Positions 1,512 through 46,490 of a DNA stretch of 64,000 bases are shown here, in pieces (the stretch's first letter is position 1; each line of letters starts with the position of its first letter). The notes below the pieces were generated by a model. The model was not told the DNA's origin. It saw only the letters and a program-made list of their open reading frames with translations, and searched no databases. Origin of the DNA: Candidatus Lloydbacteria bacterium RIFCSPHIGHO2_02_FULL_50_18. GTDB lineage: Bacteria; Patescibacteriota; Minisyncoccia; Phycocordibacterales; UBA6899. Where the stretch lies: NCBI GenBank assembly GCA_001821395.1, contig MHLM01000012.1:1-64000 (forward strand), in the 5' to 3' direction. Both the position numbers and the translations under genes were made by a program.

Positions 1512-2501
1512 TTATTCTTGTGACGTAAATGATATAACTCCTTGAACTCTTGCATGCTGCAGAATACGTTTTGGATTTTGCACGTCGAGCGAGATCGTTT
1601 GTGATTCCAAATTTTTACCCGACCTCACGAGTGTCAGGTTCTGTGCGTCAACTTCTGATTGTCGATATTGATTGCCGACATTCCATTTATAGGAAAGTTC
1701 ACCATTGAGTAAGCCGTCAAGAGAAAAGAAATACGGCACAGCGCGTACAGTGAATTCCGTACCTGTCGTTTCCGTAGATTGTTTTAGTGCATGATGAAAG
1801 AGGGTGCCAAGAAGTGGTGCTTGCTCATAGAGTGTGACTTTTGGATCTGAAACAGGAATTGCGACGTATTTTGCCCCCTTCCACTCAGTCCCAGGAAGAC
1901 TTGTTTCGACATCGACGGGTACTGAGGACCCGGCATAACCAACGGGAATAACGATGCTGTTTCGTCCGATAGCTTCTCCCGCCCCCTTTATGCGGTCATA
2001 GGTCCATTTGTAATAGTATTCAGCAGGATTGCTTGTCAGGGTGTTGAATCTCGGGATCGCCGTTACCCGCACCATGCTTTTGTAGCTGGGGAGCGCTTTT
2101 CCTTTGTAGAATGGAGGTGTATATGTTTGAGCTTCCCAGAGAATGTCGACTTCTGCAGGGGCAATAACAAGCTGCTTATTAAGCGTCTGTCCTTCGGCGG
2201 TGAGAATGATTACGTCGATAATGGTCTGCTCTCCAAAGTCTCCCGTCCGAACAGTGATCGATTTTTCCGCCATGCCATTTTTGATTGGCTCTTTATTGAC
2301 ATACCAGGTGATATTTGCGGTACTGAGATTCACTGCGAAGGAATTCATGAGTACGAGGACGCTCTCGTTTGCGCCGGGTGTTTTTGGGGTCGTCGTGAAT
2401 TTCACGAGATCAAATCCTGCTGCAAATAGCGTTCCAGGAAAAGTTGTTAATGAGAAAATTATTCCAATGAGCAATAGTGCTCGTTTTGTACTAAGATACA
2501 T
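1512..2501 (-). CDS. hypothetical secreted protein
   Basis: 329-aa ORF with signal peptide MYLSTKRALLLIGIIFSLTTFPGTLFAAG. Confidence 0.55.
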   Translation of the reverse strand: MYLSTKRALLLIGIIFSLTTFPGTLFAAGFDLVKFTTTPKTPGANESVLVLMNSFAVNLSTANITWYVNKEPIKNGMAEKSITVRTGDFGEQTIIDVIILTAEGQTLNKQLVIAPAEVDILWEAQTYTPPFYKGKALPSYKSMVRVTAIPRFNTLTSNPAEYYYKWTYDRIKGAGEAIGRNSIVIPVGYAGSSVPVDVETSLPGTEWKGAKYVAIPVSDPKVTLYEQAPLLGTLFHHALKQSTETTGTEFTVRAVPYFFSLDGLLNGELSYKWNVGNQYRQSEVDAQNLTLVRSGKNLESQTISLDVQNPKRILQHARVQGVISFTSQE

Positions 2502-2642
2502 GGAATAATTTTACCTTATTTACCTCCAACCCTCAACTGAGTTATCAAGTACCGGTTGCTGTTTTCCTTGTGTTGTAAAGATCAATATTCTCCTCAACAG
2601 AGCTGGGGTGTATGTCGCGCGGATCAAGTCATTCAATCTGCA

Positions 2643-6105: not shown

Positions 6106-6750
6106 TTACCCTTCGGTCGTCTCCCTATAAGCATCTGGCTGTGTAGTCAGACTCGGTGCTTTTGTCTCGACAGGCTGAAAAGGAACAGTTGGCGTCGGTG
6201 GAGGGGGAACGACGAGCATGGGGTCCATGACCCGCTCCCTTGTCGGTGTCGGTATGGGGCTACTCATACGGAATGCGCCGCCAAGTTTTTGTTCGAATAT
6301 ACTCCCCACCGGCCTTGTCGGTGTCGGAGGTGTGGGGGTGACGATGATCGGTCGTTCTACGGTTGTTGTCGCCTGTGGTGCGCTCGCTGTCCCAGATCCG
6401 GAAATAGTTGACGGCGTGGTTTCAGTATATAGAGCGGTAAGAGAACCTTTGACACTGTTAAAGATATTTAAGTTGAGGTCCTGAGCAATAAGTGCTGCTT
6501 GTTCGCGAGATATCTTTAGCTCGTCTGTGAGCGCTATCACAAACTGCTGTGGCTGGGTGACGCCCATGAGGAGTAGACTGGATTGATGAGAGAGTGATTT
6601 TCGCTGCGCGGTACTGAGTACGAATTTTGTTGCGATCGCATCGTAGTACTCTGAAGTTTGCGGAGAAAAAATGACATCCTGAAGATCATCCGGCAGAGAG
6701 CGGTATATCGATAAAAGATCTTCTTTGGTATAAGTGTATGCCATGATCAC
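6106..6750 (-). CDS. hypothetical protein with Pro/Thr-rich C-terminal region
   Basis: 214 aa with PTPPTPTRP and PPPPTPTVP low-complexity linker-like stretches. It lies between the VirB6-like and PrgI-like genes. Confidence 0.45.
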   Translation of the reverse strand: MIMAYTYTKEDLLSIYRSLPDDLQDVIFSPQTSEYYDAIATKFVLSTAQRKSLSHQSSLLLMGVTQPQQFVIALTDELKISREQAALIAQDLNLNIFNSVKGSLTALYTETTPSTISGSGTASAPQATTTVERPIIVTPTPPTPTRPVGSIFEQKLGGAFRMSSPIPTPTRERVMDPMLVVPPPPTPTVPFQPVETKAPSLTTQPDAYRETTEG

Positions 6751-21199: not shown

Positions 21200-21559
21200 T
21201 TATTCCATGTGTGCGATGCACGTGGTTGCTGCGGGATTTGCCAGCAGCCGGGATTCTTCGATGTCCATATTGCAAACGACACAACTTCCGTAGGTGCCTG
21301 CGTCGATCGCGGTGAGTGCGGCGTTGACTTCGTTCCATCTTTTTTCGAGTTCAAATTCGACCGCGCTGCGATCTTCAAAGTTAGTGATCTCACCCGCCCT
21401 TTCCTCCTCTTCGGCAGTATCGAGATTCAGGTCTGCCGCAACGGGTTCCCAGTCCGCGAGATTGTCCGGATTAATGCGCCCAACCTTCTGTAATTCTTGA
21501 ACAAGTATTGCTTTCTCTTCTTCGAGTTTTTGTTTTAATTGTGCGAATTGTGTTCCCAT
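21200..21559 (-). CDS. DksA/TraR-family C4 zinc-finger protein
   Basis: C-terminal YGSCVVCNMDIEESRLLANPAATTCIAHME (CxxC-17-C) preceded by a coiled-coil N-terminus. Confidence 0.65.
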   Translation of the reverse strand: MGTQFAQLKQKLEEEKAILVQELQKVGRINPDNLADWEPVAADLNLDTAEEEERAGEITNFEDRSAVEFELEKRWNEVNAALTAIDAGTYGSCVVCNMDIEESRLLANPAATTCIAHME

Positions 21560-44049: not shown

Positions 44050-44070
44050 AGTGTATGTTTGATTCACTGC

Positions 44071-44346
44071 TTATTCCTTGACGGCGTCCTTGAGTGCCTT
44101 TGCGGGGCGGAACTTAGGAACGCGCATTGCTGCGACCTTGATGGCCTCACCTGTGCGTGGATTGCGCGCAGTGCGTGCAGCACGAGTCTTCACGGACCAG
44201 ATGCCGAGGCCGGCAACCGAGACCTCGTCGCCCTTCTTGAGGGCTCCGGTGATCGTCTCGATCATCGTCTCAACAGCCTGCTCTGCAGCGACCTTTGTGC
44301 CGCCGAGCTTTTCGTGGACTGCCTCAACTATTGACTGCTTGTTCAT
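44071..44346 (-). CDS. hup: DNA-binding protein HU
   Basis: MNKQSIVEAVHEKLGGTKVAAEQAVETMIETITGALKKGDEVSVAGLGIWSVKTRAARTARNPRTGEAIKV with the HU/IHF arm motif. Confidence 0.9.
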   Translation of the reverse strand: MNKQSIVEAVHEKLGGTKVAAEQAVETMIETITGALKKGDEVSVAGLGIWSVKTRAARTARNPRTGEAIKVAAMRVPKFRPAKALKDAVKE

Positions 44347-44510
44347 CGTTTTCTGATTAGCAGATGCTAATAAATCTTTGTTATGTACGATCACTCGCAA
44401 TAACCCTGCATGCAGAGGTTTCTAGCCTCTATATATATTATATAGGAGCGGTACTTTCGCGCAACAGAGCCATTATTTTGCGGTGGATAACGGAATAAGT
44501 GTCAAAATAT

Positions 44511-44545
44511 TGACAAACATAAAGCAATATGCTAAAATATGACTA
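44511..44545 (+). promoter_or_regulatory. strong sigma70-type promoter (TTGACA-17-TAAAAT)
   Basis: TTGACAAACATAAAGCAATATGCTAAAATAT. Confidence 0.5.
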
Positions 44546-44546
44546 C

Positions 44547-44708
44547 GAGTGCGATCTCAGAAAATTGAGGAAAGAGTGAATCAAGAAATTTTTTACTCCA
44601 TGTCACTTCTCTTCAGCAGTATTAAGGATTTAATGGGTAATTATGCCCAGTCAGTAGTATAAAAAAGAGCAGCATTCCCGAAAAACCGCTAGACAAAGCG
44701 GTTTTTCA
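44547..44708 (+). ncRNA. candidate small non-coding RNA (about 160 nt) bracketed by a consensus promoter and an intrinsic terminator
   Basis: No ORF longer than 19 codons and no ribosome-binding site. It ends with GAAAAACCGCT-AGACAA-AGCGGTTTTTC. Identity unknown. Confidence 0.35.
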
Positions 44709-44713
44709 ACACA

Positions 44714-44744
44714 TTGACAAATCGCCCAAATCAGGTACAATCAC
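44714..44744 (+). promoter_or_regulatory. second sigma70-type promoter (TTGACA-16-TACAAT)
   Basis: TTGACAAATCGCCCAAATCAGGTACAATC, upstream of the micro-ORF at 44771. Confidence 0.4.
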
Positions 44745-44770
44745 TGTAGGTCATGTAGATGGAGACATCC

Positions 44771-44875
44771 ATGGGAAACAACTGGATTGGATATTTGGCG
44801 ATAGGGTTTGTGGCATTGGTCGTGTGTTTTGGCGCTTGGGAGGCCTGGCGCGCATATCAGAAAAGACCGCGATAG
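44771..44875 (+). CDS. candidate 34-aa hydrophobic micro-protein
   Basis: GGAGACATCC then ATG. It encodes MGNNWIGYLAIGFVALVVCFGAWEAWRAYQKRPR, a single TM helix. It is below the ORF-track size cutoff. Confidence 0.3.
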   Translation: MGNNWIGYLAIGFVALVVCFGAWEAWRAYQKRPR

Positions 44876-44960
44876 AATCTGGAGGAGCAGAAGCCGCTCG
44901 ACTGAGTGGCTTTTTTTATGCAGTATTCTTACTCCCTACCTACTACTTGATGCACTTTAA

Positions 44961-46490
44961 TTATCTCGCGTACTCGATGCAGCGCATCTCACGGATAACG
45001 GTTATCTTGATCTCCCCGGGATATTTCATTTCCTGCTCTATTTGAAGAGCGATATCTCGTGCGAGTGCATGTGCCTCAAGGTCACTGATTGTCTGCGGTG
45101 TAACGAAGACACGCATTTCGCGGCCAGCCTGAAGCGCGTAGGCTTTTTCTACGCCCGGTTTTGCGCAAGCAATCTTCTCAAGTTCCTCAAGTTTTTTGAG
45201 ATAATTCTCCACCGACGCGCGTCGCGCACCAGGTCTTCCTCCTGAGATCGCATCGGCAGTCTGCACGATGATCGATTCGATCGTTTCATAAGGATATTCC
45301 TCATGGTGGGATTGCATTGCCTTCACGATGCGCTCATCTGCACCGAATTTCGCTAAGATGCGCCGTCCGATCTCCACATGAGTTCCTTGCACTTCATGGT
45401 CAAGCGCCTTTCCGATGTCATGGAAGAGCGCCCCCGCTCGTGCTATCTGCACATTTGCACCCAACTCCTCCGCAAGCATGCCGGAAATATGAGCCATTTC
45501 AATGGAATGCTGAAGCACGTTCTGTCCGTAACTCGTACGGAAGTAAAGCCGTCCGAGAATAGAGACAAGACGGGGATCCATGTTGAGCACGCCGCATTCG
45601 TAGCATGCTTGTTCACCCTTCTCTTTGATGATCTTATTGATGTCGAGGCTGGCTTTTTCCACGAGTTCTTCGATCTTGGAAGGCTGAATGCGTCCGTCGA
45701 GAATAAGATTCTCGAGTGCAACACGTGCGATCTGCCGTCGCACCGGGTCAAATGCGGAAATGATGATCGTTCCCGGAGTGTCATCAACAATGAGTTCAAC
45801 ACCGGCAACGCGCTCGAAGGTGCGGATGTTGCGCCCTTCTTTGCCGATGATCTTACCTTTGATCTCATCGTTTGGAATATTGACCGCTGAGGTCATGATG
45901 TCACCGGCGGTTGACGCAGCGAGGCGTTGAATTGAGGTGGAAAGGATGTCTTTCGCGCGTCGGTCGAGCCGCTCGATGCCCTCGCGCTCCAGCTTTTGTA
46001 ATCGCACACGAAAATCTTCCTCGAACCGTTCGTCGATCTTTTTGACAAGGGCCTGCTTTGCTTCTTCCTCGGAGAGCCCCGCAACCTTCTCAAGTTCCTT
46101 CTCAACAAGCTGTTTCCGCTCTTCGATCGTTGTTTTGATGGCGCGGATCTCTTCTGCTTTTGCCTTGATATTGTCGACTTCCTTGTCGACGTCCTCTTGC
46201 TTTCGGTCGAGTGTTTCCTCCTTCTTTATGAGACGTTCTTCCGTTTTACGCCACTCGTGCTCCTTTTCCTTTTCCTGAGCACGCAATTCTTCGGCTTTTC
46301 TCTCCCCTTTTTTCTCTGATTCTTGAATGATCTTCTGCGCCTCTTCCTTTGCGGAAAGCAGCAATTGCTTGACCTCGATCTCGATCGTACCCTTTTTGCC
46401 TACAGTGAGAGCCCAGCGGATGACATATCCGGCGATAAGGCCGAAAATGCCGCTGCCCACACCAATGGCGATAACCATGGTGAAATCCAT
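44961..46490 (-). CDS. rny: ribonuclease Y
   Basis: N-terminal TM, Glu/Lys coiled coil, KH domain, and HD domain HSIEMAHISGMLAEELGANVQIARAGALFHDIGK. 509 aa. Confidence 0.9.
   Translation of the reverse strand: MDFTMVIAIGVGSGIFGLIAGYVIRWALTVGKKGTIEIEVKQLLLSAKEEAQKIIQESEKKGERKAEELRAQEKEKEHEWRKTEERLIKKEETLDRKQEDVDKEVDNIKAKAEEIRAIKTTIEERKQLVEKELEKVAGLSEEEAKQALVKKIDERFEEDFRVRLQKLEREGIERLDRRAKDILSTSIQRLAASTAGDIMTSAVNIPNDEIKGKIIGKEGRNIRTFERVAGVELIVDDTPGTIIISAFDPVRRQIARVALENLILDGRIQPSKIEELVEKASLDINKIIKEKGEQACYECGVLNMDPRLVSILGRLYFRTSYGQNVLQHSIEMAHISGMLAEELGANVQIARAGALFHDIGKALDHEVQGTHVEIGRRILAKFGADERIVKAMQSHHEEYPYETIESIIVQTADAISGGRPGARRASVENYLKKLEELEKIACAKPGVEKAYALQAGREMRVFVTPQTISDLEAHALARDIALQIEQEMKYPGEIKITVIREMRCIEYAR

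Follow-up and report, generated by a model that had tools for sequence, protein, structure and literature searches.

A candidate accessory small RNA gene in the hup-rny spacer of a Candidatus Lloydbacteria bacterium

Results

The locus and the predicted transcript

The stretch of DNA considered here, which we call the window, comprises 64,000 nucleotides (nt) from an uncultured Candidatus Lloydbacteria bacterium (Paceibacteria) of the Candidate Phyla Radiation (CPR/Patescibacteria). CPR bacteria, whose genomes are minimal, probably live attached to the cells of a host. In the window the genes for the HU protein (hup) and RNase Y (rny) are separated by a spacer of 614 nt, and in that spacer, on the strand opposite to both genes, lies the subject of this report, a predicted small RNA (sRNA) gene. 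An earlier reading of the DNA (the sequence-only reading) had proposed an unannotated sRNA of about 160 nt at this place, with its own promoter and terminator. Comparison with relatives supports that proposal through a conserved promoter, covarying helices, the lack of a conserved open reading frame (ORF) and a homologue with no gene behind it. The features on which the argument depends are these.

44071-44346, minus strand: hup, encoding the HU protein (PF00216, by Pfam)
44961-46490, minus strand: rny, recognized by its RNase_Y_N, KH and HD domains
44500-44515: palindrome TGTCAA-AATA-TTGACA, 93% conserved
44510-44538, plus strand: promoter P1, with -35 box TTGACA (44510-44515), a 17-nt spacer and extended -10 box TGc-TAAAAT (44530-44538); score 11/12 with TG
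44545-44707, plus strand: predicted sRNA transcript of about 163 nt, from a putative start A 7 nt past the -10 box to a putative end in the terminator T-run
44547-44555, plus strand: 5' strand of helix P1, GAGUGCGAU (closing stem, 44547-44554 with 44670-44677)
44565-44583, plus strand: the most conserved stretch, UUGAGGAAAGAGUGAAUCA, holding the 3' strand of helix P1b and the 5' strand of helix P2
44572-44613, plus strand: helix P2, AAGAGUG (44572-44578) with UUCUCUU (44607-44613), around a variable loop of 28 nt
44620-44659, plus strand: P3 arm, made of UAUUA/UAGUA, a 2x2 AG/AG internal loop, GAUU/AGUC and apical GGGU(A)/(U)GCCC
44669-44677, plus strand: 3' strand of helix P1, GCAGCAUUC, 82% identity
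44680-44707, plus strand: intrinsic terminator hairpin of the bidirectional type, GAAAAACCGCU-AGACAA-AGCGGUUUUUC

Homologues were drawn from 80 rny loci of species-representative genomes and from contigs reached by exact look-ups of the HU protein, which extend to diverged relatives because HU is so conserved; L-numbers below are labels for the rny/hup loci of these relatives. The RNase Y protein of the window shares 93% identity with its counterpart in a Lloydbacteria metagenome-assembled genome and 62-87% with those of 79 other Paceibacteria. Seven distinct full-length variants of the sRNA are available, namely the window, L001, L083, L084, L090, L094 and L086, along with identical copies of four of them (window = L081 and L082; L090 = L091; L094 = L095; L086 = L088 and L089). 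The six besides the window lie beside hup in contigs of related Candidatus Lloydbacteria. A further variant, L085 (1-125, minus strand), is truncated: promoter, 5' end (ACGAGUGCGAUCUC) and 3' strand of helix P1 are those of the other variants, and its contig stops before the terminator. The L085 interior is unrelated and purine-rich, with five GGA motifs.

Promoter and terminator

The TTGACA-17-TAAAAT promoter named in the sequence-only reading is present, at coordinates shifted by one base (44510-44538), and its architecture is conserved in relatives. Matches to the sigma-70 consensus at 11/12 or better occur at three sites in the 64 kb, both strands counted, against 0.8 expected, and two of the three are in this spacer. 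The TG extension lies at 44530-44531 and the -10 box TAAAAT at 44533-44538. All eight variants, that is, the seven full-length ones and truncated L085, keep the -35 box, the exact 17-nt spacer, TGA or TGC, and a TAnnnT -10 box; in 7/7 full-length variants a start A, 7-8 nt past the -10 box, opens the conserved ACGAGUGCGAU. Mean pairwise identity is 93% in the -35 region and 71% in TGn/-10, falls to 36% in the spacer between the boxes and 42% in the discriminator, and returns to 82% in the 5' part of the RNA (44545-44584). Conserved boxes over so diverged a spacer indicate a working promoter, not general sequence conservation.

The palindrome at 44500-44515 deserves separate mention. It is retained, as TGTCAAAAWWTTGACA / TGTCAAAAATTGACA, in L002, L006 and L007, where the position of promoter P1 is otherwise empty and no gene stands behind it. 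Besides providing the -35 box of the divergent promoter, the palindrome may serve hup as an operator or upstream element.

The intrinsic terminator with an AGACAA loop, also noticed in the sequence-only reading, is confirmed at 44680-44707, and it covaries in relatives. Its arms, GAAAAACCGCT (44680-44690) and AGCGGTTTTTC (44697-44707), are complementary at 11/11 positions and form a perfect inverted repeat. There is no free U-tail; the T-run belongs to the extended stem of A-tract and T-tract that is typical of the bidirectional type. A simple terminator scan of the window did not list the hairpin. Across the seven variants 96.1% of the cells of this helix are paired and four pairs show double changes; in three variants CCGC/GCGG has become CAGC/GCUG, a C-G to A-U replacement. 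In relatives without the sRNA, rny ends in a bidirectional hairpin, AAAACCGCTCAATTGAGCGGTTTT, to which the sRNA terminator is homologous.

A conserved fold with compensatory changes

The fold was derived with RNAalifold from the seven variants, and the controls were alignments in which pairing partners were slid by 1-3 columns and 500 shuffles. The consensus has 42 pairs and consists of a multi-stem junction (P1b, P2, P3) closed by P1, plus the terminator. Standard pairs fill 94.5% of the cells, against 40-47% when partners are slid. Conservation and covariation in relatives, the check that the sequence-only reading had suggested, are both found: ten pairs have changed on both sides among the seven variants, compared with 1-2 in the slid controls, and the observed covariation was reached by 0/500 shuffles.

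Helix P1, with 8 pairs and 92.9% of cells paired, has one double and three single compensatory pairs, the changes being G-C to A-U and G-U to G-C. It appears in the minimum free energy (MFE) fold of 7/7 variants, and the reverse complement does not form it. The sense of the RNA is taken to be that of the plus strand because the conserved G-U pairs fit only that strand. P1b is a small hairpin, CUC/GAG. In P2, 93.9% of the cells are paired, and L083 shows a double change from A-U to G-C. In the P3 arm the 2x2 AG/AG internal loop is conserved, three of the four apical pairs are doubly compensated, and indels are confined to the loop; the apical hairpin reads GGGUA/UGCCC in the window, AAGGC/GCCUU in L083 and GGAGU/ACUCC in L090. 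In L086 the whole P3 arm is replaced by a different hairpin.

The most conserved stretch, UUGAGGAAAGAGUGAAUCA, contains GUGAAUCA, which is invariant in 7/7 variants. It can pair in two registers. The first combines CUC/GAG with AAGAGUG/CACUCUU and the second UUGAGGA/UCUUCAG with GUGA/UCAC. Both registers are maintained, with one variant-specific compensatory change each, and the single-sequence MFE folds are split between them. The mosaic of conservation tracks the fold: identity is 82% in the 5' part of the RNA and the 3' strand of P1, and 45-50% in the loop of P2, at the apex of P3 and in the junction preceding P1.

Might the element nevertheless be a non-functional passenger, recent or decaying DNA behind a promoter-like palindrome that in reality serves to regulate hup? 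Its very narrow distribution, the survival of the palindrome where nothing follows, and weak single-sequence folding z-scores in some variants would all fit such an origin. A palindromic operator, however, needs no -10 box, TGn, fixed spacer length or start A, and all of these are conserved over a randomized spacer. Compensatory changes moreover hold four helices across sequence divergence of about 20-30%, and identity follows the fold, at 82% in stems and junctions versus 45-50% in loops. We consider a passenger unlikely.

Coding potential

Does the element encode a small protein instead? The sequence-only reading had stated that it contains no plausible ORF, the longest having 19 codons, and no ribosome-binding site. 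The details did not hold: a GTG ORF of 37 codons spans 44549-44662, with a further GTG in the same frame at 44576, 5 nt past GAGGA. The conclusion that the element is non-coding stands, since no frame is conserved. The candidates would be a protein of 28 aa from GTG 44576 or one of 20 aa from ATG 44600 (MSLLFSSIKDL...). In their favor, GAGGAAAGA-GTG resembles a ribosome-binding site with start codon and is nearly invariant, and the peptide start MS(P/L)LF(N/S)xI(K/M)D recurs in 6/7 variants. But the frame from GTG 44576 has 28, 29, 5, 19, 4 or 19 codons across the variants, or reads through the terminator; its length differs from variant to variant, and in L084 and L094 it ends after 4-5 codons. 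The ATG frame has no Shine-Dalgarno sequence, its ATG is ACG in L083, and its C-termini are unrelated. In L001 a one-base indel, in a hairpin loop, shifts the frame while the downstream nucleotides are still conserved. Substitutions are evenly spread over codon positions with no third-position bias, and the same nucleotides are explained by compensating helices. Among the seven variants length, start and stop all differ, and no reading frame is conserved. On these comparative grounds the element is judged to be non-coding, and a small protein is very improbable.

Independence from the downstream genes

The next cassette on the plus strand begins just past the terminator and lies outside the sRNA.

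44714-44741, plus strand: promoter P2 of the next cassette, TTGACA-16-TACAAT, score 11/12
44771-44875, plus strand: micro-ORF for a hydrophobic 34-aa peptide, MGNNWIGYLAIGFVALVVCFGAWEAWRAYQKRPR, with ATG at 44771 and Shine-Dalgarno GGAG at 44761-44764, 6 nt upstream
44891-44917, plus strand: terminator of the micro-ORF, a hairpin plus T7

This second promoter and 34-codon hydrophobic micro-ORF were part of the sequence-only reading and are present as described. The peptide has one transmembrane helix and a basic tail. Other variants carry other cargo: a 76-aa membrane protein in L094, and in L001, L090 and L091 a 65-aa protein without a Pfam family. The partial 44-aa gene of L084 continues the sequence of the 65-aa protein and is apparently the same gene. 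The downstream genes have their own TTGAC(A/T) box 6-13 nt past the terminator T-run (L083, L084, L090 and L094 are examples). In L086, L088 and L089 the sRNA and its terminator are followed by about 60 nt and then by the convergent rny stop codon, with no downstream gene.

These arrangements bear on the idea that the element is a cis-acting 5' leader, a riboswitch or attenuator that would steer read-through into a downstream gene for a small membrane protein. The layout invites it. A multi-stem junction closed by P1 and followed 2 nt later by a terminator resembles a transcriptional riboswitch, the conserved stretch has two mutually exclusive pairings, and a same-strand gene follows in the window, L001, L084, L090 and L094. 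Against it, L086, L088 and L089 have nothing to lead into, and the downstream genes of the others are mutually unrelated and each has its own TTGAC promoter; there is no conserved downstream gene class of the kind expected for a riboswitch. The alignment of the variants contains no conserved antiterminator complementary to the 5' strand of the terminator, and L083 and L084 lack the U-run at 44589-44594. No known aptamer is recognized, and Rfam gave no riboswitch or leader match except terminator look-alikes. The gene-less loci, the differing cargo and the missing antiterminator argue that the sRNA is an autonomous gene, not a leader; the possibility that the region is a long 5' untranslated region (UTR) of the micro-ORF, which the sequence-only reading had raised against itself, is excluded by the same three observations. 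A leader of any sort is distinctly unlikely.

A different relation to the neighbor would be a type I toxin-antitoxin pair, with the sRNA as RNA antitoxin and the adjacent hydrophobic micro-ORF as toxin. A small hydrophobic peptide gene beside an sRNA gene in a strain-variable locus recalls such systems, and the peptide, with its single transmembrane segment, basic tail and strong promoter of its own beside a structured sRNA, has the right character. The two genes, though, are in tandem on the same strand, not antisense or divergent, and they do not overlap in antisense. They show no complementarity: duplexes between the sRNA and the downstream mRNA have z-scores of -0.3 to +1.0 relative to shuffles (window, L094, L090 and L001). 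They also occur independently, the sRNA without a peptide gene in L086 and the peptide gene without the sRNA in L003, L093 and L096. We regard a type I pair as highly unlikely.

Distribution and exchange within the spacer

How widely is the sRNA distributed? Among the 80 rny loci of species-representative genomes, the sRNA body is kept by L001 only; ten others keep just the hup-proximal 116-119 nt, through the -35 box. The sRNA is absent at this locus in L002-L013, L092, L093 and L096-L111. A covariance model, R1, was built from the seven full-length variants and run on 110 loci plus the window. Homologues score 122-176 bits; beyond the seven variants and their identical copies, R1 found only terminator-driven matches of at most 33 bits, and no second copy of the sRNA was found by it in the window. 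The R1 matches in L047 and L011 lack P1 or P2 and are not credible.

Relatives whose RNase Y is 82-87% identical lack the sRNA at this locus, and L093 and L094, which have the same HU protein, differ in its presence, only L094 having it. Their hup promoter regions, too, are identical as far as GAGCCATT, and beyond it the two loci are wholly different, a break which indicates that the spacer has been exchanged by recombination among strains. Since the sRNA is one of several small cassettes that come and go in the spacers of close relatives, it appears to be an accessory RNA, not a housekeeping one.

The sRNA cassette is flanked by 16-nt direct repeats, TCAAAATATTGACAAA (44502-44517) and TCAACACATTGACAAA (44706-44721), which are 88% identical and hold both -35 boxes. 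This arrangement suggests an origin of the cassette by insertion or duplication at the promoter box.

The spacer as a whole (44348-44960 of the window; L001-L013 and L092-L098) looks like a strain-variable array of mini-cassettes, each laid out as a TTGAC -35 box, a -10 box, a small gene and a hairpin of A-tract, GC-stem and T-tract. At the position of promoter P1, L003, L093 and L096 have a 39-aa hydrophobic micro-ORF driven directly by the promoter at that position, L004 and L005 a 61-aa acidic ORF, L009 a BlaI/PadR-like repressor, and L092 an 84-aa relative of the 65-aa protein. The ribosome-binding site regions of the window micro-ORF, TGGAGACATCCATG, and of the 39-aa ORF in L003, TGGAGACACCATG, are closely similar. 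Pfam searches of the neighboring small proteins gave no significant family except for the BlaI/PadR-like repressor in L009. In L011 the promoter position is occupied by another stretch poor in ORFs, about 170 nt long (2460-2630, minus strand), with the same terminator at its end; a stem in it closes onto the terminator, and its folding z is -2.6. This stretch may be another sRNA cassette.

Comparison with known RNA families

Rfam 15 was searched at the gathering threshold over the whole window, and at E<=10 over 44340-44970 and five homologue contigs. At the gathering threshold the whole window yielded four tRNAs only. At E<=10 the spacer and the five contigs gave only terminator look-alikes (Leu, Phe, Thr and Trp leaders, RNAI and STnc370). 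The sequence-only reading had offered 6S RNA, signal recognition particle (SRP) RNA or a lineage-specific regulator as identities, and had recommended a scan with the 6S, SRP, tmRNA and RNase P models; none of these models matched, and of the identities only the lineage-specific regulator survives. The housekeeping ones fail on the lack of an Rfam match at E<=10, on the branched fold and on absence from close relatives. For 6S RNA (RF00013) there was no match at the gathering threshold or at E<=10, and the P1/P1b/P2/P3 junction is branched, not a rod with a central bubble. For SRP RNA, tmRNA and RNase P RNA there were likewise no Rfam matches, and 163 nt is too short for tmRNA or RNase P RNA.

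One could still propose a divergent housekeeping RNA of one of these four kinds that Rfam models do not recognize in CPR. The length of about 160 nt, the strong, constitutive-looking promoter and the housekeeping genes on both sides are in keeping with that proposal, and CPR RNAs are often divergent. Set against this are the absence of any such match at E<=10 in all six sequences, the length, a branched junction with a swappable arm where a 6S rod or SRP hairpin would be expected, the close relatives with 82-87% identical RNase Y that lack the sRNA here, and same-HU strains that differ in its presence. Such an identity seems to us extremely unlikely.

Resemblances to known systems remain instructive. 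Like 6S RNA, the sRNA is of similar length, has 5' and 3' ends that pair in a closing stem, and is probably abundant, given its near-consensus promoter; unlike 6S RNA, its fold is a three- or four-way junction and it is not universal in close relatives. Another parallel, in organization, is with the Hfq-independent Gram-positive sRNAs of the RsaE/RoxS type, which are likewise independent intergenic units of 100-200 nt with a Rho-independent 3' hairpin and a structured non-coding body containing short, highly conserved segments. In those RNAs the seed is C-rich and complementary to Shine-Dalgarno sequences, whereas here the corresponding segment, GAGGAAAGAG, is purine-rich and largely base-paired; the present sRNA differs too in having no similarity to any Rfam family, no predicted target and a CPR host. 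The element is a new sRNA family, of the ordinary promoter-to-terminator kind, that matches no Rfam family.

The hup side of the spacer

Several further features lie close to hup.

44437-44464, minus strand: likely hup promoter, TTGCGC-16-TATAAT, invariant in relatives and not in the promoter-scan output

The 5' UTR of hup (44347-44430) is conserved and contains a hairpin, AGAGGnnnnnnnCCUCU, a GCAUGC sequence, a second, covarying hairpin and UUAGCAUCUGCUAA right before the ATG, which has no Shine-Dalgarno sequence. Between the palindrome and the hup promoter, at 44483-44491, lies GTGGATAAC (reverse complement GTTATCCAC), largely conserved in relatives; it fits the DnaA box consensus at 8/9 positions.

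At the other end of hup a motif, GGUUCAUCAAACAUACAC, is conserved between the stop codon and the hup terminator in most relatives (hup 3' UTRs of L001-L097). Its form in the window is CAGUGAAUCAAACAUACAC (44056-44070, minus strand), and this form shares a 10-mer, AGTGAATCAA, with the sRNA in the same sense. The overlap is specific to the window, relatives having GGTTCATCAA there, and is about what chance would give; it is probably a coincidence.

Discussion

What kind of element is it?

We think it very probable that the element is a genuine, independent non-coding RNA gene. The fuller statement, that it is an autonomous gene for a structured sRNA of about 163 nt, belongs to a small Candidatus Lloydbacteria group and is accessory, not housekeeping, joins several claims, and we hold it to be probable on the strength of sequence comparison.

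Several points weigh against this assessment. Start A44545 and the end near 44707 are both predicted. The distinct sequences number only seven, and every one of them was reached through its linkage to hup, which biases the distribution and keeps the covariation statistics modest. The shuffle control is subject to the caveat that the sequences are related. The register of P2 is ambiguous. Stability of the body alone is unremarkable, with z from -0.45 to -3.2 across the variants, and the z of -5.6 for the element owes much to the terminator. Scans with conserved motifs in Joint Genome Institute (JGI) metagenomes gave 0 matches, as did a scan of viral contigs, and blastn against phages and plasmids found no match. 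So narrow a family could represent a young element that is weakly selected. No target or partner emerged: when the sRNA was compared by RNAduplex with the window, on both strands, the duplexes were all long and gapped, no better than shuffles, and the same was true of pairing with the mRNAs of the micro-ORF, the 65-aa and the 76-aa proteins and with the hup 5' region.

What might the RNA do?

In the mechanism that we favor for an sRNA gene, RNA polymerase would start at A44545 and stop near 44707; the terminator hairpin and P1 would shield the two RNA ends and give a stable RNA acting in trans; and the invariant, purine-rich UUGAGGAAAGAGUGAAUCA, switching between two pairings, would be the contact site for a protein or RNA partner. 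That the sRNA acts in trans through this stretch is a possibility we put forward tentatively, below even likelihood. The top duplex matches in the window, for example on the minus strand near 21400 and the plus strand near 6540, are long and gapped; a match of 16/17 positions there involves a non-conserved part of the RNA and is close to chance expectation, and we do not take them to be targets. Nor is a protein partner obvious. No gene for CsrA, Hfq or ProQ is found in the 64-kb window, which is part of the genome only. A protein sponge of the CsrB/RsmZ type would be expected to carry multiple GGA motifs in hairpin loops, in a genome with a CsrA gene. GGA motifs number two in the window RNA, neither in a hairpin loop, and three to five in L085 and L086.

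A bolder idea is that of a free-standing two-state sensor RNA in a cassette-exchange hotspot, with a riboswitch-like fold yet active in trans, whose invariant Shine-Dalgarno-like strand would toggle between UCUC and UCUUCA partners and bind the ribosome, HU or another protein. We think this unlikely. If true, CPR bacteria would have accessory riboregulators of a new class.

Significance

A full-text literature search found no paper describing an sRNA in CPR/Patescibacteria, and the annotation of CPR genomes hardly goes beyond proteins, tRNAs and rRNAs. The practical weight of the present case is limited, as the family is very narrow and the element is of a familiar kind. Its value is that the candidate RNA gene is supported by comparative evidence, namely promoter architecture, covarying helices and lost reading frames, and not by motif spotting alone. 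It gives metatranscriptomic studies, and work with the few CPR co-culture systems, something concrete to look for. More broadly, it appears that a spacer between two housekeeping genes can hold exchangeable small cassettes, encoding an RNA, micro-peptides, small proteins or a repressor, that standard annotation misses.

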